From NCBI GenBank assembly GCA_951406725.2, contig OX597818.1:85312001-85376000 (forward strand): a DNA stretch of 64,000 nucleotides. The letters are read 5' to 3'. Source of the DNA: Octopus vulgaris. Its lineage: Eukaryota. The first letter of the stretch is position 1, and each line of letters starts with the position of its first letter. Positions 201 through 60,537 of the stretch are shown here, one piece after another. Both the position numbers and the translations under genes were made by a program. The notes under the pieces were generated by a model. The model was not told the DNA's origin, did not search any database, and saw only the letters and a program-made list of their open reading frames with translations.

Positions 201-205
<5 letters not shown>

Positions 206-618
206 AGTAATGAGAGAGAGTCCACATGTGGTCACTCTAACGCTAGATATAGATCCATGAAGGGAATCCACCACTAAAGAATTGTTCTCAAGAATTAGTT
301 CAATGCACCAAGAATGTAAGTGAGCAGGACAAATGAAAAGTAACGAATAAAAAATAGATTAACTCTATACAATTGTTTCACCGTTAATAGATTGTGTAAT
401 TTTACTTACATAATCATTTTCAGATCTTCAGTAGAGTATATCAAAAATATAATATAATTTGCTGAGTCAAACGCCAACATTAGAGTGACCACATGTGGAC
501 TCTCTCTCATTACTTGTATTAATAATTTTTACTGTATCCCAGTTTTTATACACTAGGCCACTTGGTGTTTTAAATTGATGCTATTAATTAATATTCAATT
601 TTTTCACCCTTATTGTGA

Positions 619-622
<4 letters not shown>
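201..622 (-). mobile_element. (TA)n-embedded fold-back element, probable Penelope-like (pLTR) remnant
   Basis: Flanked by (TA)n on both sides. Perfect 40-bp inverted repeat 201-240 / 480-519 (atacaagtaatgagagagagtccacatgtggtcactctaa), with a hammerhead motif between the arms. Confidence 0.65.
362..437 (-). ncRNA. Type I hammerhead ribozyme motif (canonical core)
   Basis: Minus strand reads ACUCUA-CUGAAGA-[UCUG...CGGU, long stem II]-GAAA-CAAUUG-UA-UAGAGU. Stem I is a perfect 6 bp (ACUCUA/UAGAGU), stem III is the palindrome ACAAUUGU, and the cleavage triplet is GUA (370-368). The 10.1-11.1 pair is a U-U mismatch. Confidence 0.75.
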
Positions 623-2510: not shown

Positions 2511-3237
2511 TGTGTGTGTGTGTGATTCTTTTGGGTAACAGTGGATCTTGAAGCAGTAAAGCTATAAATAATAGTATGTAAATATCTGGTTAAAAAGCTT
2601 TTTGGAGAGGAAAAAAATGCTGCTTGTGGGACATGAATCCGCATCTCTTGCAAACATGAGAGGCATTCTACCATTGAACCAAAACAAGCCTTTGAATGTC
2701 TAATTTCTCTATCATTCTTATCTGTAAGAATTGTATACTGTTGATGTCATGAGAATTTAAACTTCAAGATAAGGTAAAATAATTCTTTTTTTTTTTTTTT
2801 TTTTGTAACTGTGAATTTCGGAGTAGAAAAGCTGTAAATAATAGCATGTGAATATTTCATTTGGTACTCATGCCAGTGGCCCATAAAAGGCACCATTCAA
2901 GCACTGGGCCTCATGGGGGGCTATGTGACTGATGCCAGTGTCAGGTAACTGGCACCCATGCCAGTGGCACATAAAAAGCACCATTCAAGCGTTGAGCCTT
3001 ATGGAGGCAATGTGACCAATGCCAGTGTCACATAACTGGCACTCATGCTGGTAGCATGTAAAAGCACCCATTACACTGTTGGAGGGGCTGGCATTAGGAA
3101 GAGCATTCAGCTGTAGAAACCATGCCAAATCAGATTAGAGTCTGGTGCAGCCCCTCAGCTTACCAGCCCTGGTCAAACCATTCAACCCATGCCGTGGACA
3201 ACAAATGCTGATGATGATATATATATGTATGTGTGTA

Positions 3238-3520
3238 TAGGGGAGAATTCACACACAAAAAAAAACAAAAGATGAAGACAGGTGGTGTAAACAACAAACA
3301 GATGTATTAGTTTAACGCTCAGGAAGTGAAAACGTCTTTAACATTTCGAGCCTACGCTATTCCACAGAAAGGAACACAGAAAGAAACAAGGAGAGAAAAT
3401 AAAGAATGTGTAGTGGCTACTGATCTATCATGGCGAATGCTGGACAGAGGGGTCACACAGGAGAGCTAGGAAGAAGGGGAGATAATAATGTAATGGTGAT
3501 CCCAAAATGAAGGTGCGCGT
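3238..3520 (-). mobile_element. Diverged Penelope-like family A copy with decayed hammerhead-like motif (3336-3371)
   Basis: Shares acaaaagatgaagacaggtgg...gtattagt...cgctcagga...tttcgagcctacgc...cagaaagaaacaaggagagaaaa with the 15070 copy. Minus strand reads CUUU-CUGUGGA-A-UAGC(GUAG)GCUC-GAAAUGU-U-AAAG. Confidence 0.55.
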
Positions 3521-5520
3521 GTGTGTGTATAAGAGAGGATGTATGTGCTTGTGGAAGAGGGCTGGTGACCTTGACGTGTGTGTGTATATGTATGTACATA
3601 TAGCTATGTGGTTAAGAGGTTTGCTTCTCATTCATGTAGTTACTGGTTCAATTACACTGCCTGGTATCTTGGACAAATGTCTTCTAACATAGCTCTTGGT
3701 TGACTATGGCCTTGTAAGTGGAGTTGATAAATGGAAACTAAAATAGGCCTGTCATATTAATACTTTTATTATAGAATATGTATTTTAAATCATCCTCATT
3801 ACCACCACCATCATTGTCATTAGCATCCAGGCAGTGATTTTTCCAGAATCATTAGTCTGCCACACAAAAGTACTTAACGCTATTTCTTCCAGCTTCATGT
3901 TCTAAGTTCAAATGTCACTCAAGTCAATTTTGCTTTTCATCCTTTCAAGGTCAATAAAACAAGTACCATTTGAACTCTTGGGGGTCAATGTAATTAACTA
4001 TTCGTGCCTCTCAAAATTGCTGGTTTTGTGCCAAAAATGAAAAAGAATTTTTTTTATTGAAATTATTAAGCAGGTACAGTAAAATTTAGTACCAGTCATA
4101 TGCTGAGATATTTCTCATTGTTGCTTTAAAACCCTTGCCCTATTGTTTTGAATTTGAAACTTATTCAGATCAACCTAGCTTTTTAGTGATCCTGTTATCA
4201 ATAAACTATTAGAAAATGTTGTATGATTGTGTGTGTGTATACATACATACAGATAAATCCCCCCCCCATACACATACGTGCACATACACGCACACACAAT
4301 TATTCTTTCACAAGTATAGTGTTGACAGTGACTGAAGTTTCAGTGTGATTAGCCTTCATTAGACTGTCCGATAAATATATTCTCTATATTAAGTATTGAG
4401 TAATTCTTTAGTTTAATGTAATGTAAAATTATTTTGTGGCATTTCATCTGTCTTTACGGTCTGAGTTCAAATTTCACCAAGGTCATCTTTGCCTTTCATC
4501 CTTTCAAAGATCAATGAAATAAGTATCAGTTAAGCCATGGGGCTGTAATTGACTAGCCCATTCTCTCTCCCTGCCAAATTTCAGGCCTTTGTCTATTGTA
4601 CAGGAGATTATAAAATTAAACACACACACGTACATACAGACCCAGCATAGCTGAAATATCTTCTGGAAAGGTGATAGCCCAGTGCTAGTTTTATATCAAC
4701 AAAAACTGTTGTAGTTGATGTAACATACTTTTGGAATGCTGTGCTGGGAAATCACTTTATACACAAGCTGTGATTCTCATTTTGATCATGTGACATTTGA
4801 CTCTATTCACTTTCTTTATCATCTCCCCTTCTTGTTCTCTCTCTTGTTCTCTCTCTCCTCCTCTTATAAGATTAACTGTGGTGATGGTGATGATAATAGT
4901 AGTAGTGGTGGTGGTGGTTATTGTCGTGTGATAGGGGTACTTTTAAGATAGCCATCAGCATTTCTACTACTGTCATCCTGTAGTACTTTTAGCATCTCTT
5001 TGTCATCACCACAATGACTTTTATGTTACCATTGGCATCCTTCATCATCAACAGCAGCATAATGATCATCATCCACACCATTACCATTGTTGACCATAAT
5101 CTTAACTTGTGGTTACCATTATCAGAATAGTTGCATTCTGATCAGCATCAACACCACCATCATCATCACAATTGTTATCACCATTATTACAATTGTCATC
5201 ATCATTGTCATTGTCATAACAACCACCCTAGTCATTTTCATCACAATTGCCACCATCATTATCATGGTGGACTAGAGGCGCAGGCATGGCCGTGTGGTAA
5301 GAAACCGGCTTCCCAATCACATGATTCTGAGTTCAGTCCCACTGCATGGCACCTTGGCAAAATGTCTTATACTATAACCTTGGGTCAACCAGAACCTTGT
5401 AAGTGGATTTGGTTGACAGAAAGTGAAAGACATCTCTTTGCTTTCAATTATATATATGAGTGAGTAGACAAACGAAAGAAATGCACTCAACACATTTATT
5501 GGGAGTTATATGTATAAATC

Positions 5521-5661: not shown

Positions 5662-6524
5662 CAGGGTGCAATGGCTAAATTGTCACTATTTTATATTTTT
5701 TATTTCGTGCATGCCCATTGTTTTTGTTGATTACACAGTATAGTAGGATCAGTTGGGCACCATCTGTGAGAAAAACAGCACCATGACGCAATTCACTCTG
5801 CCAGAAATTTGGAAACAACATGCTGTACTACTTGGCATTCATGCCAAAAGCTCCAATATGAACATTTTAGGGTTTCTGGGTGTCAATCTGAGGGCAGTGC
5901 AATCTGAGGACATGTACTGAGAGTGATAAAAATCAAACATCCAGTCAACATCATGGTGTTAGGAGTGATCAGTAGTGATGGCAGCGCTATGCTTCCATCT
6001 TCCCACATGGTCTCAGACTCGACACAGAGGCCTACATCAAGTGCCTGGAGGAGGTAGTGCTGCCCTGGGTCAAGGGGTGGCTGCTGGAAGACCCTGTGTC
6101 TGGCAACAGGACTCTGCACCATGCCACACAAGCTGAAAAACACAGTCATGGCTGTCAGACAATTTTTGTGACCACCCCTAACATTTGGCCACCTATCTTA
6201 TCAGACTGTAACCCGCTTGATTATTATGTGTAGGTCACAGTTGAGTGAGAGACCAACAAAACTCCTTGTAACACCAAAGATGAACTGAAGACAAGGATTA
6301 TGGCAGCATTCACCAACTTAAACAAGGAGGCCATCCAGAAGAGTTGCAGGAGATTCCAAAGTCGCCCGGAGGCCATGGTTGAAGCCATTGGTGAATTTAT
6401 TGAATAAATTTACTCTTTAGTCTTTCAAGATATTTTTATGTAATTTTGGTAAATATATCTGTTAAAATGAGATGTTATTTTCATTTTTGCATAATTTAGA
6501 CAACAGTTTATTCACCACACCCTG
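5662..6524 (+). mobile_element. Internally deleted, defective Tc1/mariner-superfamily transposon (DD37D/maT type)
   Basis: TA flanks (5660-61, 6525-26) and imperfect TIRs cagggtgcaatggctaaattgtc / gacaacagtttattcaccacaccctg. Transposase remnants KHPVNIMVLGVISSDG, AYIKCLEEVVLPW, VWQQDSAPCH (D at 6110) and WPP...DCNPLDYYV (D at 6219). The D-D spacing of 109 bp equals DD37D if a 5-bp deletion is restored. Stops and frameshifts are present. Confidence 0.88.
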
Positions 6525-7036
6525 TATATATATGTATGTACATGTGTCTTTGTGTTTGTCCCCCACCACTGTTCAACAACTAGTCTTGGTGTGTTTATGT
6601 TCCCATAATTTAGCAGTTCATCAAAAGAGACCAATTAAATAAGTATCAGCCTTAAAATATAAGTTCTGAGGTTGATTCGTTTGACTAAAACATTTTACAA
6701 GGTGGTGTCACAGCATGGCCATAGTCTAATGACTGAAACATGTAAAAGATAAAACAGCATTACTATAGTCTTATGTGTTACATCCAGAGATTTTCTTGTA
6801 TGCAATAACAACTAGACATACAATAACTCCACCACTATTACATGTACTTACCACATAAACCCTACACATGTTAAGAGAATGGTCAGCTGGTAAATTGGGG
6901 TACTTGAGGTTATATGTGAGTACCTCGCGACTCCCAGCAGTCTTACCAATCCACTCACACAACTAAACTGTCCTTTTTTTTATCTGGTGCTAAAGCTCGT
7001 ATGGTTGAATGACAGTGAGTGAACACATAACAATTA

Positions 7037-7445
7037 GGGGCTTTAATGAATGTGCAAGTTGTTTACTGGCCATGTAAGGTGTTTAATGGGCATTTGGGGC
7101 CATAATGTCATGTATGGGCTTTAATGGGCATGTAGAGGCTTTAATGGGTACATATAGGGTTTTAATGGGTTTGACAGAAATGCTGGGACTTTAAAGGGCA
7201 TGTAGAGCCCTTAATCAGCATGTAGGAACTTTATTGGACATGTGAGGGCTTTAATGGATATGGGGAGACTTTAATGGGTATGTGGAGCTTTCAATGGACA
7301 TGCAGAATTTTAATGGCTTTGTGAAGACATTGAAAAAATGCTGGAACTTTAAGGGGTATATGGAGACCTTAACTGGGATGTAGGGACTTCAGTGGACTTG
7401 TAGGAAATTTATTGAACATGCTGGGGATCTTAATAACCATGTGGG
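7037..7445. repeat. Degenerate minisatellite, about 20-bp unit
   Basis: Consensus about gggctttaatgggcatgtag, repeated about 20 times with heavy divergence. Confidence 0.75.
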
Positions 7446-8416
7446 TACACATGCACTTTTATGTGCATGTTTACCAAGAAGTCAACTTGTCCATCAAAGT
7501 AACTATCCAGGTCTGCATGGAGGCTAGGAATGGTACAAGGAATTAAAAAGAATTAAAGCTGTTGGCTTTCTGTTACACAAATGACCTTACTGTATACATG
7601 ATCCTCCTCTTCACCATTTTAGGTCAATTTTCCATGCTGTTAAGGGTTGGATAGTTTGAAAGGATCTGGTGAACCATAGATTGGCATCAGTGCTTATGTA
7701 TGAGTATGTGTGGTTGATATATTTATTATAAAATTTGTGTTGGCTCAGACTTTAGATTATACTTGGTAGCTTAAAATAAATGAATTGTCAACCAAATCTT
7801 AAAGTTGCAGACAGCAAGTGTTTCATAATAAATTTTACTCTGCTCCCAGTATGGAGCCCACCCACCAGTTATCTGTTGTTGTTGTTCTTAAACTTGCTTC
7901 AAAATAATAACACCACTTCTTCCATCTCTTTCTGTGTGTGTGTGTGTATTTATAATGTTTGTGTATGTACACATACAGATGTGTACACATGTGCACATAC
8001 ACTACCATTCCCAACACTTAACGCAAGTATTACTTTTTACTTCATAGTACATACTATACTCTCATTTTGTGAGTGCATATATATATGTGTGTGTGTGTGT
8101 GCACATATATATGCCAATGTCTATTTTTGTATGTGTATATGTATGCTTTTATATATATGTGCATGCATGTGTGTTTATACACATACAAGTATACATACAT
8201 GCACATAATACAGCCATGCCTTGAAGAACATTTCATGAACAGTAACACTTAGTGAAGCAATAGTGAAGTCTTAGATTTTGAACAAAGACGTGAATTTGAT
8301 TGTGTATATATCGATTTCTCTTTTCTTTTGTTTGTTCAGTCAGGTTCATGTATAAATACACTCACACGCATACATATTCATGTATAGATACCTACACATA
8401 ATCATGTACATATATA

Positions 8417-36550: not shown

Positions 36551-37285
36551 ATATGTATATATTTGTGTGTGGGGGGTGTATGGGCATATGTGTATATATA
36601 TATGTATTGCATTCCTCTTTATTTATCTATCTTCCTACCTCCCTCCAATACTTTTATATTTGTGTTTACGTGTGTACATATCTACGCCCTTGTTGCCTAC
36701 AATAAGAAAACAAACTGCAAAATACCAACAACAGACCTGCAACAAAAAAAGAAGAAAAGAAAAAAAATGACTAAAAATAAAAACTCCAGTCTTACCCACT
36801 AATCCCCATTCTACCCCACCTCCTTTCCTAAACTTTTCATTCCTAATTGTGTCTCTGAAAGAAGAAAAAGAAAACCAAGCAACAAGAGCAAGTGGCTCGT
36901 TCACCACCATACTCACCCTTGCCATTTACTTACTTTCTCTCTCCCCCCTCTCTCTCTCTCTCCACCTCTCTCTCTCCCTCTCTATCTCTCACTCAATCTC
37001 TCTTTCATTCTCAAGAGTAAAGTTTTTTGACATTTCTACATAAAACCTGGGGCAGGGATGGAGAGCAGGGACTTAATTCTAACCTCTTCAGTACTTACCA
37101 TTCAATTTCCTCTCTCAGATAATCTTGATTATTTTCTCCTATGTTCTAAGATTCTTTCATTTCGTTCTCTTCCTTCTTTTGTTCATTTTTTTCTACTTAT
37201 TCTTTAGTTTGGCTGTACTTTTTTATATTTGCTTTGAACTTTATATCATTTTTTTTTTATTAAATTTTTTACTTTCCATGTCTTG

Positions 37286-37319
<34 letters not shown>

Positions 37320-39074
37320 TGCATGCTTTGGTTACCAATGGCTATGCAGAAGACCAACCAGCTTCCTGCTTTGATGATAGAAGAAGCTATTTGACATTTT
37401 CTAGCTAGATTCTGGCTAGGAATATACTCATACCAAGTGTTCACATTCACATGAGTTATGAGATAGACTGATAAAAATGGCAGAGGTAGAGAGGTGAAGT
37501 GCATAGAATCATATTCAGAGAGAGAGAGAGAGAGAGAAAGACAGTGCAAAAATAGTGGGAGAGGAGAGAATGAAAGATAATGGTAGAGAATCTACGACCA
37601 TACTGGAACTCTACTTTGAAAGGTTTAGTTAAACTAATCAACTCCTGTACATATTTTTCTCTCTCTTTTTCAATTTTTTTTTACGTTAAATCTGACATAG
37701 CTTATTCTGTTGGTAAGTTTTGCTGAACTAGTAAGTTAAAGGAATGTAAACAAACCAACACTGGTTGTCATGCAGTGATGGTGGTAGTGGATAAAAAGGA
37801 CACTCACACACACTTATGCATACACGTGTATACATGCACACATACACACTTCAAGGTAGTGCCTCAACACAGCTGCAGTGAAATGACTAAAACAAATAAA
37901 AGAATAAAGAATATTCTCACACACACACACACACACACACACATGATGGGCTTCTACACAGTTTCTATTGACCCAGCATGATTGCTGTTGAATGACTAAA
38001 GCATGTAAAAGATGATAAATAAGACATCATTAAGGTTGGCTGTTTTTTTTTTTTCGTTGTCCATTTGATTATATCAGTACCTGGTAACTACTGGTGTTAA
38101 TGCAATTGATCATAGACTTTCCCTGCTTCTCCTTCTCCATATTTTTGGTCGTTCCAAAGAAAAATTTCATTAATCTTAACTCCTGCTGGATCATCAAAGA
38201 CATAGTCTTTTTTGGGAATTACTCGTACCATATTCTTGGCAATAATATCAGTAAATTCCCTTGCATACTTTCATTTTATGTACATTAGTTATTGCTTTAG
38301 AAATAGTAAAAGAGAAAATTCTGCTAGAATATGAAGACACTGCAAGAGATAGGTGTGAAACTTTTCAGCTGACCAAAGGTTTGCATTTTGTGTATTCTTA
38401 TCTAAGAAAAAGGAAGAAGGGAATTATGAAAAATAGACATTTCTAGAAAGAAATTCTTTCAGATCAGAGAGGTGTATTTTTTTTTCCATGTTCTAGACCA
38501 AAGATTTCACTCTTAATTTCCATCTCTTGCCATTAGTCTTTACTTCATCTCTGTCTGTCTCTATCTCTCTTTTATAAAAACATCTTAATAATTCAATCAT
38601 GTGGTGCCCTCTGGATGGCCATTAATACAAAGAGAGTTAACTATCTCTTCACAATGTGAGGCTGGGTTAGAAATTCGAATTTGAAAAAGAGGAATATGAA
38701 AGGATATACAGAGTGCACATATATAAATATTAATATAAATACAGGTACAGCATTGATTTTCCACAACTTTTGGTTCCAAAGCATTTCCCAGTTAACTGAT
38801 TTTTCCAAGCCAGTGATGGTTACCTTGGCCAACACACTGTCTTTTAAACAAATACTAAATTTACTTAATGATATGAAATACAGGTACCTGTACGTTTGTA
38901 TAAATAATACAGGTTCATTCATACTGTACTGTGCAAGGTACCAATAAATTAGTCTGGTGGCCACAGGAATTGGACATTACTGTTTGTGAATTAGTGCGGA
39001 TTGTAAGCGGTTCCAGACCATCACTGTCTAGAAAGTTGGAGTTGAACCTGTACATAATTAAAAAATTTTCTTTT

Positions 39075-40250
39075 ATCGGCATAGGCGGAAAATTTGGAGA
39101 GTGGCTGCACAACTTCCTAAAAGACAGAAGACAGGCAGTTGTGAGCAATGGAGCCACCTCCAAGGAAACACAAATAACAAGCGGTGTTCCACAGGGCACT
39201 GTCTTGGGGCCACTGCTGTTCATAGTGGCCCTTTCAGACATGCCTTCAGTTGCTACGATGGCCACCCTTGCTAGCTATGCAGATGACACAAAAGTCTCCC
39301 ACACAATACAAAACCCTGAAAATATTGCGCATCTGCAACAGGAGTTGGATAAAATATACAGGTGAGCGGAGGACAACAACATGCAGTTTAATGCAGGTAA
39401 GTTCCAGGCCCTGCGCTACCGGCACACAAAGGTAAATGACGTGCAGACTGGATACACTGGCCCAGGAAGAATTTCAATCCCTGAGTCAAAATCAGTGCGT
39501 GACCTAGGCATTGACATGAGCAATGATGCATCTTTCCAAGTGCATATTATTAATCTGGTTATCAAATGCAGATGGCTAGCTGGATGGATTCTCCGAACTT
39601 TCAGAACAAGAGAGAAGGAGACACTGACGGTCCTCTGGAAAACATTCGTCCTCAGCCGCTTGGACTACTGCTCCCAACTATGGTCACCACACAATATAAA
39701 ACTAACAGCAGAACTCGAAGCAATTCAGAGAAGCTACACAAAGAAGATCGTCTCAATGCAAAATATCAGCTACTGGGAAAGACTGAAAGTATTAAACCTC
39801 TTCTCCCTAGAGCGGAGGCGGGAGAGATATGCGGTGATATACATCTGGAAAATCCTGGAGGGTCTTGTCCCAAACTTTGGCATTCAAAGTTACCCCAACC
39901 ACTGCATGGTGCCAAAGATTCCAACATCACCATCAAAGTACAGGACCAGATACTGCAACAGCTTGGGTTTCAGAGGACCACAGCTCTTTAACATCCTCCC
40001 TAAATGCCTGAGAGACTTACATGGTGTGGATGTGGGTTTCTTTAAAACTAAACTGGATCTCTTCTTGTCAGGAGTCCCAGATGAACCTACCTCATGACAG
40101 GAGACACAGATGCGGGCAGCAGCATCGAACTCCCTTGTTGATCAAGTGCCACGTATCAGAGTGGATTCACATATTAGTGTAGCTCATTCAGCGGTGGTGC
40201 CCCAGCATGGCCGCGGCCTTCGGGCTAAAACATTTTAAAGGATTTAAGGA
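39075..40250 (+). mobile_element. 5'-truncated non-LTR retrotransposon (CR1/L2 group), RT C-terminal half plus 3' UTR
   Basis: SGVPQGTVLGPLLF, YADDTK, MQFNAGK, RDLG, RLDYCSQLWSP and LFSLERRRER motifs. In-frame TGA at 39363-65 (W->stop). ORF ends at 40097, followed by a 3' stem-loop and a short tttaagga tail. Confidence 0.92.
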
Positions 40251-41094
40251 ATCTTTGGCAAAGTTCTTATAATTTCTCAGTGGTAGCCATGTATAGTACT
40301 ATTTCATCCTTTTTAAGAATCTCCAGCATGACTTGATTTGTAAACTTGTTAATTAGATATATAAAGAAGACATTGCAGTAATAATTACATGCCCTAAATT
40401 TTCTAAACATGTACCCCCTCTCTCTCTCTCTCTCACTATTTTGAGCACATTCAGGGCTTTGCTATTTCCCTTTTACTTAATCTTTGTATACACTCCATCA
40501 TGTTCTTTATGCACACTCTTTTCCCCCACACTCTCTCCTCCACTCTTGCTCATACTCTCTCTTTCTCTGCCATACATGTACACACATACACTACACACAC
40601 AACACATATACATACACAACATATCTACACACATGCACACATACATACACATTCGCAATATCTTTATTGATGCTATTATTACTACAACTATTATTGTTCC
40701 TTCCTCAGTTGCCCTTGCGACTATAAGAGAAACCACCACCACTACCACCACCATCATCATCATCATCATCATCATTAATACTATCATTATCGTTGTTGTC
40801 AGTTAATTTTTATTTTGTTTTACGGTTTCCACTTGAAGAATTTTTACTTGGCTGCAATGTTTGGCGACATTTAAACTACTCACCAAAATTCGTTTGGCCA
40901 ATAATTAGTTTTACCAGCCGTTTTGTAAACATTCAGTAGGCTTAAGAACTGACAAATTAAAAACTGCTAAATGGTCTTCTCACTTGTCTTGACATAATAT
41001 AATATAGTTCTAAAAGACTGTTCACTGATGTGTTAATATTGTTGTTTTCTTATGGTCATCGATTTTCATCGATTAAATAATAGCTGCTTACCTA

Positions 41095-41815
41095 CCTCGC
41101 TTAATGGTCAATCTGGGTGTTGGCGTTGGTGATGGTTGAGAATAGTTAATCCATAGCCAAGCAATTCTACTAAGTCCACCATCTAATGATTGATCTAAGG
41201 GGCAGCAATGGTGGTGTTGGTCAAGAGTTGTTAATCTAAAACCAAGCCACTCTACCATGACCTCAGCTCAATCTGGTCCTCTGGTCAGTCTAGGTGCTGG
41301 CAGTGGTGATGGTCAAGAATTGTTAATCCAAAAGCCAAGTTACTCTAGTATGTCGATTGCTTGATGGTTAAACTAGGTGGTGGTGGTGGTGAAGGATTGT
41401 TTATCCCAAACCAAAAGACTTGTTAATTCAAAGACAAGCCACTCTACCATGTCCCCTGCTGAATCTAGATGTGGTCAAGAATTGTTAATCCCAAAGCCAC
41501 GTCATTCTAGTGTTTCTGTTATTTAATGGTTAATCTCGGTGCTGATAATGATGGTAGTTGTGGTTGAGAATCCCAAGCAAAACCACTTTACCGTGTCCAC
41601 TGTTTAATAGTGAATCAAGGTTGTGGTAGTCAAGAATTGTTAATCCAAAGCCAAGCTTAATGATCAGTGTAGGTGATAGTAACAGTTTACCCATAGCCAA
41701 GCTGCTCTGCTATGTCCACTGCTCAATGGTGAGTCTAAGTGGTGGCGGTGGTAGTTGTGACAGTGGTGGTGGTCAAGAATTTTTAATTCAAAGCCAAACT
41801 GCTCTATCATGTCCA
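41095..41815. repeat. Degenerate tandem repeat, about 60-80-bp unit, about 10 copies
   Basis: Recurrent ggtcaagaattgttaatccaaagccaagccactctaccatgtcc...aatctaggtg, with (GGT)n spacers of variable length. Confidence 0.75.
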
Positions 41816-41981
41816 CATCATCACACCACACCAAACTACATTGCCATGTCTATCTTGTGTGTGTGTGTGTTGCTATTTTATTAAAGTTAGTGATCCATTT
41901 CAACTTCCGTTTATAAGCTTATTTCTATTAGGTCGGAATATCAGTGTGGTGGAGGGCAGTTCACACATATGCATGTACACA

Positions 41982-42031
<50 letters not shown>

Positions 42032-42639
42032 CTGTGCAATCATGTACATAAGCACACATACATGCATAGGTACCAATACGATGTATTCACATATGCACAC
42101 CCCACAGATACTGATACAAAACTCTACTGGACACACACATATATACACACATGAAGATGGGTACATACATATATCTACACATAGTCCAGTCTCATTTAAT
42201 ATACACAGGTTGTAGTATCACTAATGCGAGTTGATGAAATATTTTAAGATAACTTAGCCATGTCTTTCACAATTTGTCTGTAAACACTGATAACAAAAAA
42301 TTCATAAGTTTTTACCTTTGTGTAGAAAATGCTTCTCCCCAACATTTCTTTATTTGCAATGAAGGGCCTTAAAACTTCTTTAGTAATAATCAATGAAAGT
42401 AACATCAACAACATCCAACTTGTTCTCTTCTTGCTTTTTACAACAGTAGAGTTGGTTTTGTAGTGGATGATGGTTGCAGTTGGAATTTAAGGTGTAGGAT
42501 CTTTCTGCTGCTTGTGTCAGAGTGATTTCATATTTTTGTATTTTCTTTTATTTTACTATCATATGTCTTGTATTTTTACATATTATTGTAATTGTTCTTG
42601 CTGTTGCTGCTGCTATTATTATTATTGTTGTTGTTATTG

Positions 42640-43170
42640 AAGACAGCAGAACTGTTAGCATTTTGGGCAATTAGCTTAATGGCATTTCTCCTGTCTTTAT
42701 GTTGTGAGTTCAAATTCTGCCGAGGTTGACTTTGCTTTTCATCTTTTTGGGGTTGATAAAATAAGTACCAGTTAAATACTAGAGTAAAATGCTTAGTGGT
42801 AAGTCTACATTCTGAGTTCAAATTCTGATGTGGCTGACTTTGCCTTTCATCCTTTCAGGGTCAATAAGTACCACATGAGCACTGCGGTCAATGTAATCAA
42901 CTAGCCCCCTCTCCCAAAATTTCAGGCCTTGTGCCTTTTGTAGAAAGGATTATTATTATTATTAGCAGCAGTAGTAGTAGTATTAAGGCAGCAAGGTAGC
43001 AGAAGCAGTGTTACATCGAGCAAAATGTTTGATGGCTTTTCGTCTGGCTTTACATTCTGTATTCAGATTCTTAAGTACCAGTGAAACACTTGGGTCCATG
43101 TAATCGACTAGTTCCCTTCCCCACAAATTTTGTGCCTTTTGCAGATAGGATTCTTCTTATTATTATTATT
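42640..43170 (+). mobile_element. Cluster of about three partial SINE family 3 copies
   Basis: Repeated gagttcaaattc...gactttgcctttcatcctttc...aagtacca units with (att)n tails. Confidence 0.7.
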
Positions 43171-43300
43171 TCCCCAACTTCATTCTGTCAAGTTATTCTA
43201 AGCTTTGTCGTCATATCTCCGATAGGTTACGTGTGTGTGTGTGTGCAGAGTGATTGTATTTGTCTATGGAATTTGTGTATATCTTCATACATACTTGTTC

Positions 43301-43331
<31 letters not shown>

Positions 43332-43936
43332 CATGTATGTCTAGGTGTATTTTCATATTTTGAATTTATGTACGCATTTACATGAGTGAGACATTCTCTT
43401 CATCTTTCTAAAAGTTGTTTAGGCATGTGTTCTTGGCTAATGCAGTATGCATCCTTGTATGCATGTGGCTATTATAATGACAATAACATTGGTGATGATA
43501 GCGACCGTAGTTGTGGTAGTGATTATGATGGTAGTGGTGTTGGTGTTGATGATAGTAATGATGATGATGAAGACGGGAGTGGTGATAGCAATGATGTTGA
43601 CGACAAAAACTAAACTTCAACCATTTATGGATTTTTATTAAAATACTTAGTATTCTAATATTTTTTTTCTTTCTACCTTTTGATTAAGGTATTTTAGTTT
43701 TGTTTTCCAATTTATTTTTTAAAATTTAATTAAAAAATACAACAAAAAAAAATCAGAAGATTCTTTGATGAACGAAATATGTTTTATCGTTTGGTCCTTT
43801 GAGAATTACGGTTTTTGTTCCTGCCAGAAAATAACAGAAACCTAAAAAAAAAAACCCTAAAAAACAAAAGGTAGAAATGCACAAGACTGCAAGTGACAAA
43901 CCATTGCTTTTTATGTTGTGTTGTTGTTATTGTTAT

Positions 43937-43988
<52 letters not shown>

Positions 43989-44394
43989 CCGCTTTTCTTC
44001 AATTTGAGACAAGCTATTTAAAAGGAAGACATGTGATGAAAGAAAATTTCTAATTCTTAAGTCATGTGTGTGTGTTTGTGCGTGTGTGTCTTTTCCTCGG
44101 TTCAATTTGAAATCAGAAGAATATTTAGAATTTGGTTTGTGGTTTGCAGCATGCAGCATCATTTTCATCGTCTGTGTGTGTAGAAAGTGTTCCTGGGAAT
44201 TTGTTAACTTGATTGGATCAATGGATGGAAATGTTTCTATGATTAGTTACTGTTGACAACAGTGATGATGATGACGATGATGATGATGTTTGCTGAAGTG
44301 ATTATTATAAGGATGATGCTGTCAAAGAAACTTTTAGAATGAAAGCAACAGAACTAAATTCTTTACTGAAATCTAATATCTTTCAGATATTTTT

Positions 44395-44733
44395 TTATCT
44401 TTCAGCTTTTACTTGTTTCAGTCATTAGGCTGTGGCCATTTTAGGGCCATGCCTTGAAGGGTTTAATCAAACAAATTGTCTCCAGTATTTTTAAGTTTGT
44501 TACTTATTCTATTGGTCTTTTTTGTTGGTGGGGGGACAAACACAGACACCCCCTCACATAAATATATATATATACAATGGGCTTCTTTCAGTTTCTAGGT
44601 ACCAAATCCACTCACAAGGCATTTGTTGGCCCAAGGCTATTGTAGAGGATACTTGCCCAAAGTGCCACGCAGAAGGACTGAATCCAGGGCCATGTGGTTG
44701 GAGAGCAAGCTTCTTATCACACAGCCATGGCTT
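44395..44733 (-). mobile_element. SINE family 1 copy (other partial copies about 680-841 -, 3600-3755, 23235-23395, 44925-45075, 45948-46100, 51235-51510, 51905-52040 -, 60655-60795)
   Basis: Reverse complement of the same head, core and tail. Confidence 0.7.
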
Positions 44734-47700
44734 ATAAAATTTGTTCTGATGCTTTATATCCCAAGTTCAAATCCTGTTTAGGTCAATGTTGCCTTTCATC
44801 CTGCTAGGGGTCAGTGAAATGAATCACCAATCAAATACTGGGGTCCAAGGTATCAGTTAACTTCTCTTCTCCTGAAAACTGTTGGTCTTGCAACAAAATC
44901 TGATATCATTTAACTATGTATCTAAGGTGCAGATGTGGCCATGTGTTTAAGAAGCTTGCTTCCCAACCATGAAGTCTTCGTTTCAGTCCTACTGTGTGGT
45001 ACCTTGGGTAAATCTACTTTTAGTCTTGGGCTAAGCAAAGCCTTGTGAGTGGAAGGAAACTAAAAGAAGCCTGTTGTATGTATGTATGTATGTATGTATG
45101 TAATTATGTAGTATGTATACGTACATATATGAATGTGTGTTTGTATGTACCCTTCTATAGGCATTATGTGATACTTGTAAATGAATATCATTGACATACA
45201 AGGTTATTTGGTTCCAAAGTGAGGTTATTTGGTTCCAGCCTCTCTTGAAAAAACATGCAAGGACATGGAGAAAATATTGGCTTGCTTGGAGAGTAGTGAA
45301 TGTTGCCAACAGGAAGGACATCTAGGTGTATAAAATCTGCCTCAACAAATTCTGTCTGATCCATGCAAGCTGGCGAAAATGGTCATTAAATGATGATGAT
45401 GATGATATCCACTAAAATGTGTCTCTATTTTTAGTTTGTTTGGTTTACTTCCATTTTTGAGCTTCCAGCTCTCATTTTCATTCATTTCTTTAGTTGTCCA
45501 GCCATCTTTGTATGACAGTTAATTTGTCACAGAGATGAGTCATGGCAATGTGTCAACATATACTCCCATTGCTCACCTCTATGTTTCTTTATCAGTCTTC
45601 TGCTTCTAACTATCTATATTCCTCCTCAACAACCTAATAATAATGCAGTCGATTGGAGAATAGTTACCAAATCATCTGGGAAGTTATCTGAAATAGACTA
45701 ACAGGCTAACCATCTATCTTGATCAGGAGGTAGTGGTGGTGGTGGTATGGATAGAGAATATACCATTTATTTCTTATCTACTAAATATCATAAGGCTGAA
45801 ATTAAGCAAGTTCCCTTGGTAATCAACTAATCCATTCATGGCCATTAAAAGAGCTACACAGCTTTATATTCATTTATTAGTTCATATTTATTGATATGTT
45901 TAGCTTCCAGCTAGTGATGAATTGATTTATGTATCCATCTAGGATAATAGGTGCAGGCATGGTTGTGTGGTTGAGAAGTTTGCTTCCCAACTACTTAGCT
46001 CTGGGTTCAGGCCCACTGCATGATACTTTGTATTATAGTTTTGGTTCAATGTCTTATGAGTGAATGTGGAAAATTGAATTGAAAGAAGCACATCGTATAT
46101 AATTATATATATATATATGTGTGTGTGTGTGTTTACACACATGCACATACACACACAATGAATATTAATATATAGGGATAAGTTACCCAGGCGGGTATGC
46201 AGCAGAAACATATAATTATGCTGTATAATTAACTGTTGAAAGAAAAATTTGAAGTTGCACTAGTTTCTGTATTCTTTGTAATTGATTGTTTTGGATTTAC
46301 ACTCTTGAATAAATGTGTGTGTGAGTAGAAGCGAGCAATGGAATATAAAGGAGAGCAACAGAATAAGTGCCAGCCTTTAAAAGATAAGTACTGGGTCTGA
46401 TTTGTTCAATGAAAACCCTTGAAGGTGATGCCCCACCATGGCTCCAGTCCAATGACTAAAGCAAGTAAAAGATAGATGTGTGTGCATGCGTATGTGCATG
46501 TATGCATCTCCTCTTGACATCATGTGATAGTTGCAAATGGGTGTTATTGACATAATAGGCTGTATCACTCATTTCTAATATTTTGCTGGAACATATCTAG
46601 CCAAGGGGAAATGTTACCTTGCTTGAAAACAGATGAGAATTGGTGATAGGAAAGGCATCCAGCCATAGAAAATCTGCCTCAATAAATTCTATCCAACCCA
46701 TGCAAGCATGGTAAAGTGGATATTTAAAATGATGAAGAGGACCTACATTCTACATGAGCAGATCTTCTTAGCTATCAAATTTGCTTCAAATTACAGTCTA
46801 ATGGCTTTAAAAAGAAAGTAAGAGCACATTAGGTAATGTAGTCTTATATATGCCTGCACAATCAGAGCTGACTTGGGGCTAAAAAGTACAACAACAACAG
46901 AATGACTACAGCAACAACAACTGTTACTATGACAACAGCAGCAGCAACAAGGACAACAGCAACATATATGTATATATGTGGTATGTTTTCAAATATCTGG
47001 TTGTGTGTCACCAGTGTTGAGATTTGATTGGCTCAAAACTTTGCATGCCAAAGATCTGACACTATCGCTTACTAAACAATACTAGGCTAATGAATGGTTC
47101 AAAAGAAACAACAAAAGTATAATTAATTAACAAGCTAGTTAAGTTTATAGGTCATCACCACTGTTACCATAGCCATTCATAGCAGCACCACCACTGCAGG
47201 ACACATCATGAATGCCGAGATCATGATCAAACTTTTAATTAGGTAGTATGAGGAAGGAGAAAGAGAGAGGTAATGGAAATGACAGGAGAGAGAAAGAGAG
47301 AAAAAGAAAGAAAAGTAAGAGAGATAGCAGAAGGCAGAAGAGACAATGAGAGAGTAGGAAAATAAAAGAGAGAGGTGTAAGTAAGAGGAAGAGAACAAGA
47401 GATAAATAATAGAGAGAAAGTAAAAGAATGAGAGAGAATGGAAAAAACAAATAGTTGGAGAATGAGAATGTGAGAGAAATAATTAAGACAAAGGAAAGAA
47501 GAGACTAATAATTGTGAGAGAGATGCCAACAACAACAACTGGAATAACAAGTCAAAAATTAATGTAAGCAACAGCAAGTTAAGTCTGAGACAAATGAATC
47601 ACAGGAAAACCATGAATAATCTCAGAACAGGACTGGAATAAAACAATAAATAAAACTGTGTGAAATAATAGCTTGGAAGTTTTTAGATCACTTTAACCTT

Positions 47701-60408: not shown

Positions 60409-60537
60409 GTGTCCATTGAGTCAAGCCACTCTGCCATGCCTTACGAGACTATTCATGTGGCCCCTGACCAAAGGATCTTTCCTGATCTCTACTTTGATTT
60501 GGATAAGGAGCATTTGTACGCCATGACCCCTAATAAG
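60409..60537 (+). CDS. Internal exon of a plexin (plexin A-like), C-terminal end of the Sema domain
   Basis: Polypyrimidine tract and ttttgcAG acceptor (60407-08), AAG|GTaggt donor (60538). 129 bp = 43 codons, phase 0/0: VSIESSHSAMPYETIHVAPDQRIFPDLYFDLDKEHLYAMTPNK. Matches the remembered plexin last-blade pattern (V.IESS..A..YE...V.....I..D..FD.....LY.M...K) that precedes the first PSI domain. The A versus B subfamily is not certain. Confidence 0.85.

Follow-up and report, generated by a model that had tools for sequence, protein, structure and literature searches.

Position 201-622 of a 64-kb stretch of Octopus vulgaris DNA (here referred to as the window, i.e. the whole stretch that was analysed) holds a non-coding insert with long inverted arms and a hammerhead ribozyme motif, inserted between two (TA)n runs. 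The questions are to which kind of mobile element this insert belongs, whether its ribozyme motif is conserved among other copies, and whether the inverted arms are a property of the element or of this one insertion. We consider it quite likely that the insert is a copy of a high-copy family with a conserved hammerhead motif, and that it represents the presumably 5′-truncated, partly inverted 3′ end of an endonuclease-bearing Penelope-like element (PLE), probably of the Hydra clade.

Structure of the insert and of its hammerhead motif

The perfect inverted arms, the (TA)n on both sides and the type I hammerhead on the minus strand, which were reported in the initial annotation, are all present in the sequence. 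The features of the locus are the following:

133-203, no strand: left (TA)n run, putative insertion target (repeat listing; contigs of run X1)
201-477, minus (sense strand minus): main copy, the 5′-truncated 3′ end of the element (contig depth)
201-240, minus: left inverted arm, the 3′ end of the main copy (exact reverse complement)
357-442, minus: type I hammerhead motif (core motif at 362-437) with an extended stem I (descriptor and pairing; family variants)
367-368, minus: predicted cleavage site, 3′ of A368 in GUA (sequence and hammerhead consensus)
369-376, minus: palindromic stem III of 8 nt, for which pairing between two ribozymes is predicted (self-duplex -6.4 kcal/mol)
380-424, minus: two-part stem II, with a U424-U380 closing mismatch, stem IIa, an internal loop and an inner helix
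425-431, minus: CUGAAGA core box, in which only N7 (427) is listed as variable
478-480, no strand: head-to-head inversion junction, not seen in common across the family (depth minimum; 5 other junctions listed)
480-622, plus: inverted 3′ piece, i.e. the right arm (480-519) and the tail (depth unbroken across 519/520)
482-505, plus: imperfect 24-nt palindrome (hairpin), 2 nt from the inversion junction
520-622, plus: 103-nt one-sided extension, the tail (contig depth)
624-660, no strand: right (TA)n run (repeat listing)

The arms at 201-240 and 480-519 are exact reverse complements with no extension either way (blastn within the window, E 2e-15), and the first 3 nt of the left arm are part of the TA run. 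The 40-bp repeat had been thought to frame the element. This view has to be abandoned, as the insert continues to 622, 103 nt beyond the right arm, and neither arm is a terminal repeat. No second copy of the element was found within the 64-kb window by blastn.

The hammerhead core, with CUGANGA, GAAA and NUH, is arranged around a three-way junction closed by stem I, which pairs at 6 of 6 positions (437-432/362-367) and has 3 further pairs at 442-440/357-359. The second core box, GAAA, is at 379-376 of the minus strand. Stem II and its loop span 43 nt, leaving the core halves 45 nt apart; stem IIa (423-421/381-383) is paired at 3 of 3 positions, and the inner helix (415-406/390-399) at 9 of 10, with a 6-nt loop. 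The standard pair at 10.1-11.1 is replaced by U-U, which is a published natural exception. The cut between 368 and 367, as initially proposed, remains a prediction, and the palindrome at 376-369 together with the GUA triplet gives the same site. A perfect splice-donor hexamer was also found on the minus strand at 404-409, within stem II (inner helix and loop), at a background of 0.23 per kb, which is near chance. Splicing from this donor would remove the 3′ half of the ribozyme, and no spliced joint was listed.

A hammerhead descriptor, composed after the motif was seen, matched this site only in the real 64-kb window and had no match on the antisense (plus) strand. Among dinucleotide shuffles of the 64-kb window (both strands), a stem I of at least 6 bp was obtained in 2 of 150, and a palindromic stem III of at least 6 nt in 0 of 150. 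On the other hand, the Rfam search suggested in the initial annotation gave no match to the hammerhead models at E up to 1, at E up to 10 or at the gathering score, for which the long stem II is the likely cause. Motifs of this kind may therefore be undercounted in cephalopods, since Rfam misses the long stem II and a descriptor with a 7-17 nt spacer would miss it too.

In folding predictions, the 106-nt region was no better than shuffles (z -0.21), and the minimum free energy of the monomer was -13.9, versus -10.8 for the active fold. A competing hairpin covers the GAAA at a probability of about 0.6 in the monomer, where stem III has a pairing probability of 0.01-0.02. The active dimer reached -32.8 kcal/mol versus -27.8 for two monomers, but the best co-fold (-36.8) beats the active dimer by 4 kcal/mol. 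These energies are compatible with a low, dimer-dependent activity and are no proof of any.

Copies of the family and conservation of the motif

Contigs of public sequencing runs were searched with 204-622 in place of a genome assembly. Part of this query is contained in 20 of the 24 listed runs, from four organisms, with none containing more than 0.41 of its words and none listed as RNA. The alignment took in 4 of the 24 runs (X1, X2, X3 and X10) and left out X8 (organism D) and 19 others. The DNA or probable-DNA runs, three in number and from three organisms, yielded 403, 349 and 500 aligned contigs, while run X10, only guessed to be RNA, gave 8 and served solely as a source of sequence variants. 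The insert belongs to a high-copy octopus repeat family, as was anticipated in the initial annotation; the family is interspersed, with 349-500 contigs in each DNA run, and its 5′ truncation is variable, with truncation at five other points. The summed depth over the 3′ half of the ribozyme was 5,500-44,000, versus 11-52 for contigs with private joints, which suggests hundreds to about a thousand copies, although a summed depth is not a copy number.

The way in which the inverted arms arose was examined from the depth of the contigs. In X1, the depth was 13,475 and then 11,889 across 240/241, 3,503-4,730 across 519/520, and only about 350-500 (350-498) at 456-483, and other copies run past 477 into different sequence at loose contig ends. 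Since the depth is unbroken at 240/241 and 519/520 and collapses at 456-483, where loose ends appear, the family reads from 477 to 201 on the minus strand and then from 520 to 622 on the plus strand. The upstream fall in depth reflects subfamily divergence too, besides truncation. Five other joints were listed, namely 274 joined to 500, 303 to 558, 314 to 554, 316 to 480 and 453 plus 29 nt to 572, and this copy alone has the 40-bp repeat with its junction. The 40-bp repeat is the overlap of a 5′-truncated copy (477 to 201) with an inverted 3′ piece (480 to 622). Depth and joints thus describe an inverted 5′-truncated copy with a one-sided tail, and this shape is the textbook Penelope arrangement, which is already known.

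The points at which the inverted pieces restart (480, about 492, 554, 558 and 572) are all at or in predicted hairpins (482-505, 550-568 and 572-601). This fits with self-priming, although much of the stretch is covered by hairpins anyway. Within the tail, a depth spike at 582-609, with a deletion at 599, was observed in X1 (37,000-45,000) and in X3 (174,000-198,000) and was absent from X2 (6,000-7,500). It may come from a far more abundant repeat that shares the last ~40 nt of the tail, or from a low-complexity match. A weak 21-nt likeness between the end of the tail (592-612) and the 3′ half of the ribozyme (366-386) was also detected (86%, E 0.93), and may be due to chance.

The contig variant table lists ten substitutions within 362-437, of which 8 are in stems, 1 at N7 and 1 in a loop, with none at the invariant core positions. 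All 8 stem substitutions keep or create a standard pair. The pair 423:381, which is C-G in this copy, is U-A in about 66-82% of the depth (69-82% / 66-70%), and in the pair 422:382 the majority is C-G, and the minority shares of U and A match each other (28-35% and 26-30%). A change at 394 (27-33%) repairs the sole mismatch of the inner helix. Column covariation in the DNA runs means matching frequencies, unphased; phased versions of stem IIa were read by hand in two X10 contigs, in which record 12 has C-G, U-A and A-U and record 13 has U-A and U-A. The table is filtered, as 1 of the 7 differences of record 13 is listed. Some copies have decayed, since record 12 has a U4-to-C change in the core and a broken, poorly paired stem I. 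The loose contig ends revealed a subfamily with a 6-nt palindrome and with A, C or U at N17. The comparison among copies that the initial annotation had called for therefore shows, at the level of sequence, a conserved hammerhead core and compensatory changes in stem II, with the reservation that the table is filtered and mostly unphased.

The U-U at 10.1/11.1 had been suspected to impair this copy. No variant at 424 or 380 was listed in any of the four runs (filtered table), and the loose ends of divergent contigs have U at both positions. A U after the first core box and a U before GAA are present in 14 of 25 published Hydra-clade families in the available part of File S2 of PMC8557442, with a duplicate entry for one family counted a single time and one motif common to two of the families. 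A natural U10.1-U11.1 was also reported by Perreault et al., as the best-tolerated mismatch in the accessible text of PMC3088659. Judged from these motifs, the U-U is a family trait and not damage, and the suspicion is not borne out.

Probable affinity to Penelope-like elements and competing explanations

Inverted 5′-truncated copies, one-sided tails of 30-40 bp and (TA)n targets are described for PLEs in the consulted portions of PMC8557442, and head-to-head inversions with palindromes at the junction in those of Arkhipova et al. 2013 (PMC3846280). PLE hammerheads with a palindromic helix III were proposed to act as dimers (excerpts of PMC4209133 and likewise of the review PMC6765202). The PLE connection made in the initial annotation holds well against this background: the insert has the inverted truncated shape, the one-sided tail, the (TA)n target and the hammerhead signature of published Hydra families, and its hammerhead is in the terminal region of the element. 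(TA)n targeting, which had likewise been proposed, agrees with the runs on both sides and with 4 contigs of run X1 that exit the arm into (AT)n at a point matching the left end of this copy (place 519).

Within PLEs, the Hydra clade would be the best lead for the parent element, a view that we hold with slight preference. According to Craig et al. 2021 (PMC8557442), Hydra elements target (TA)n, one family is known from O. bimaculoides, and the clade is defined by RWK and DKT motifs and a CxCX5C linker, with no CCHH. Since the definition is on the protein, Hydra is a lead rather than an established membership. The same paper describes, for Hydra-clade PLEs, a type I hammerhead near the 3′ end with U/U at 10.1/11.1 in 14 of 25 families, palindromic arms in an AC...GU stem III, (TA)n targets and, in one family, an attached inverted 5′-truncated copy, all of which are shared here. 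The combination of a (TA)n target and a Hydra-type hammerhead is only suggestive, the U-U survey having covered the Hydra clade and neither Neptune nor Poseidon. The insert differs from the Hydra rows in stem II with its loop (43 nt versus about 10-24 nt) and from published tails in length (103 nt versus 30-40 bp), as far as the consulted part of PMC8557442 goes. Identity with Hydra-1_Obim was rejected, as the motif differs in a by-eye comparison. Naiad_Obim and Naiad_Ovul were also rejected as the parent, with the last ~600 letters of their published 3′ ends being unlike this sequence by eye. The octopus Naiads, of which Naiad_Ovul is marked HHR_half_core, share the (TA)n target and inverted insertions, and the core halves of some Naiads are 35-50 nt apart (45 nt here), but Naiads are described, in the part of the source consulted, as having no canonical hammerheads.

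Other known systems resemble the insert in part. Endonuclease-positive PLE insertions, as presented in the excerpts of PMC3846280, share the head-to-head inversion, the one-sided tail, the junction palindrome and the AT-rich simple-repeat target, whereas this copy has no ORF, a longer tail and a target duplication that is unreadable inside (TA)n. The PLE hammerheads of Cervera and De la Pena 2014 (available text of PMC4209133) are likewise of type I with a palindromic helix III, are mostly single motifs in truncated copies and have a predicted dimer activity, but in them A9 precedes an additional nucleotide and then a conserved G10.1-C11.1, in contrast to the U-U and the much longer two-part helix II observed here. 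Non-LTR retrozymes (accessible parts of PMC7229834 and bioRxiv 10.64898/2026.07.22.740005) are also short, non-coding, AT-rich and PLE-related with a type I hammerhead; they are, however, tandem repeats with a hammerhead per unit, while here a single motif is joined to an inverted piece. A tandem retrozyme at this locus was rejected for its single motif and lack of a tandem unit.

Seven short motifs were compared to the Craig supplement with no octopus match, where line breaks can hide matches, and one 10-mer matched 2 unrelated entries. In the open-licence literature we found no paper on this family and, for cephalopod hammerhead families, nothing beyond PMC8557442. The O. vulgaris assembly is reported to have PLEs at 6.83% and 190 annotated families (consulted part of PMC13282606), and the octopus hammerhead family may already be among these 190. 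Two metagenome pattern scans gave 0 and 0 matches, and in a viral scan 22 of 22 loci matched only 18-26 nt around the pattern, which was taken as chance.

Could the element instead be a DNA transposon resembling a MITE, with terminal inverted repeats of 40 bp, a TA target and an incidental hammerhead-like motif? The perfect 40-bp arms and the TA flanks would fit such an element. However, terminal inverted repeats common to all copies were not recovered, as the right arm is followed by another 103 nt of family sequence and so lies internally, and the junction is variable; the depth is unbroken at 519/520 and collapses at the inner junction, the junctions differ between copies, and the hammerhead covaries. 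We give this explanation hardly any credence. It is also very improbable that the repeat is real and its hammerhead a decayed or chance motif, inactive throughout the family. The missing Rfam match, the z of -0.21 and an active fold that is not the minimum would be expected in that case, and 8 of 9 predicted frog retrozyme dimers had no in vitro cleavage in the available part of bioRxiv 10.64898/2026.07.22.740005. Yet none of the 150 shuffles gave a palindromic stem III, the motif bears the published Hydra hammerhead signature, its changes spare the core and preserve pairing in three organisms, and the palindrome persists in two lengths.

The initial annotation had favoured a non-autonomous family, and here one of the joints has to be considered. 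The joint of 453 plus 29 nt to 572 has a depth of 544 in X1 and 2,646 in X3, versus 11-52 for the four other joints, amounting to 40-52% of the depth at 442-455, and is absent from the X2 list. The depths of a deletion at 411 (544; 2,688) match those of the joint. As the joint has tens of times the depth of the others, there was either amplification of a fixed inverted unit or its repeated formation. A family that is mainly non-autonomous, i.e. a short unit which bears the hammerhead and a fixed inverted end, is transcribed, processes itself and is mobilised in trans by a Penelope-like enzyme, would account for this joint and its accompanying deletion, and also for the low depth upstream of the ribozyme, which in X1 is only 3-8% of that at the 3′ end. 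Non-autonomous retrozymes derived from PLEs are known too, as tandem repeats (bioRxiv 10.64898/2026.07.22.740005, consulted part), but the locus is not a tandem repeat. The copy in the window is also without the 453/572 junction, five other junction positions exist, that of this copy among them, and there are other possible sources for the joint itself: a tandem array, the inverted end of a single active master element, or template switching that recurred at a hairpin having a 2-nt microhomology. What remains of the non-autonomous proposal is the hint from one sub-population with a fixed junction, while the repeat and junction of this copy are private, as in truncated insertions of an ordinary autonomous element. 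For the family as a whole we regard the proposal as unlikely. A narrower version is doubtful: the ~340-bp unit, composed of the hammerhead end with its long stem II and a fixed inverted 51-nt tail, would be a non-autonomous element of its own. A Hydra-type enzyme acting in trans would have produced dozens of copies of this unit in two octopus lineages, and the template RNA would be defined and gated by the ribozyme together with its additional helix. If so, the unit would be a dispersed, inversion-born Penelope parasite and not a tandem retrozyme.

The preferred explanation is therefore a truncated PLE insertion, and the locus is best read as the dead stump of a hammerhead-bearing, (TA)n-targeting PLE. 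By analogy with the PLE literature, the full-length parent would supply a reverse transcriptase and a GIY-YIG endonuclease; the (TA)n would be nicked and the RNA copied from its 3′ end in a target-primed manner. Copying would have ended some 40 nt upstream of the ribozyme, whereupon an inverted copy of the 3′ end, together with the tail, would have formed the second end, giving the perfect 40-bp overlap. In tandem transcripts of the parent, two hammerheads are predicted to pair via the palindrome and to cut after GUA, which would process the RNA of the element, and the lone copy at this locus is likely inert. The only Pfam reverse-transcriptase match in the window (4 frames scanned) is 38 kb away and is, by eye, an ordinary LINE fragment.

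Our verdict is that the hammerhead is real and well conserved, and that it sits in an ordinary, truncated insertion of the Penelope type. PLEs are known to carry hammerheads; what this family adds is one with a long two-part stem II, which is unusual, as is the fixed junction at 453/572. The hundreds of natural variants and the many independent inversion junctions are material for studying the role of the PLE hammerhead and the origin of the inverted ends. The overall significance is modest.

The plexin host and other features of the window

One coding exon of the host gene was identified in the window:

60409-60537, plus: plexin-A1 exon, aa 441-483 (100% over a 42-aa query to plexin-A1 X4, named Octopus sinensis)

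This match agrees with the cephalopod host that had been assumed. As no earlier plexin coding exon was found in 1-60408, we infer that the element is intronic, in an intron of >60 kb, and that the hammerhead is antisense to the plexin transcript. The antisense orientation, already stated in the initial annotation, follows from the minus-strand motif and the plus-strand exon. The plexin pre-mRNA carries only the antisense strand, and thus no cut is expected. The plexin transcript would form a perfect 40-bp duplex, and it is a matter of speculation that this duplex could serve as an editing substrate; no effect on plexin is indicated.

Three other features were observed in the window. The LINE-like fragment mentioned above, at 38904-40097 on the plus strand, is a broken reverse transcriptase (Pfam RVT_1, E 6e-9), LINE-like by eye and unrelated to the insert. 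An 84-aa frame at 5979-6233 (plus) has no Pfam match and resembles, by eye, a fragment of a Tc1/mariner transposase. At 2862-3068 there is a tandem repeat of 87-88 bp, with a related stretch near 2077-2126, which is probably part of another interspersed repeat.
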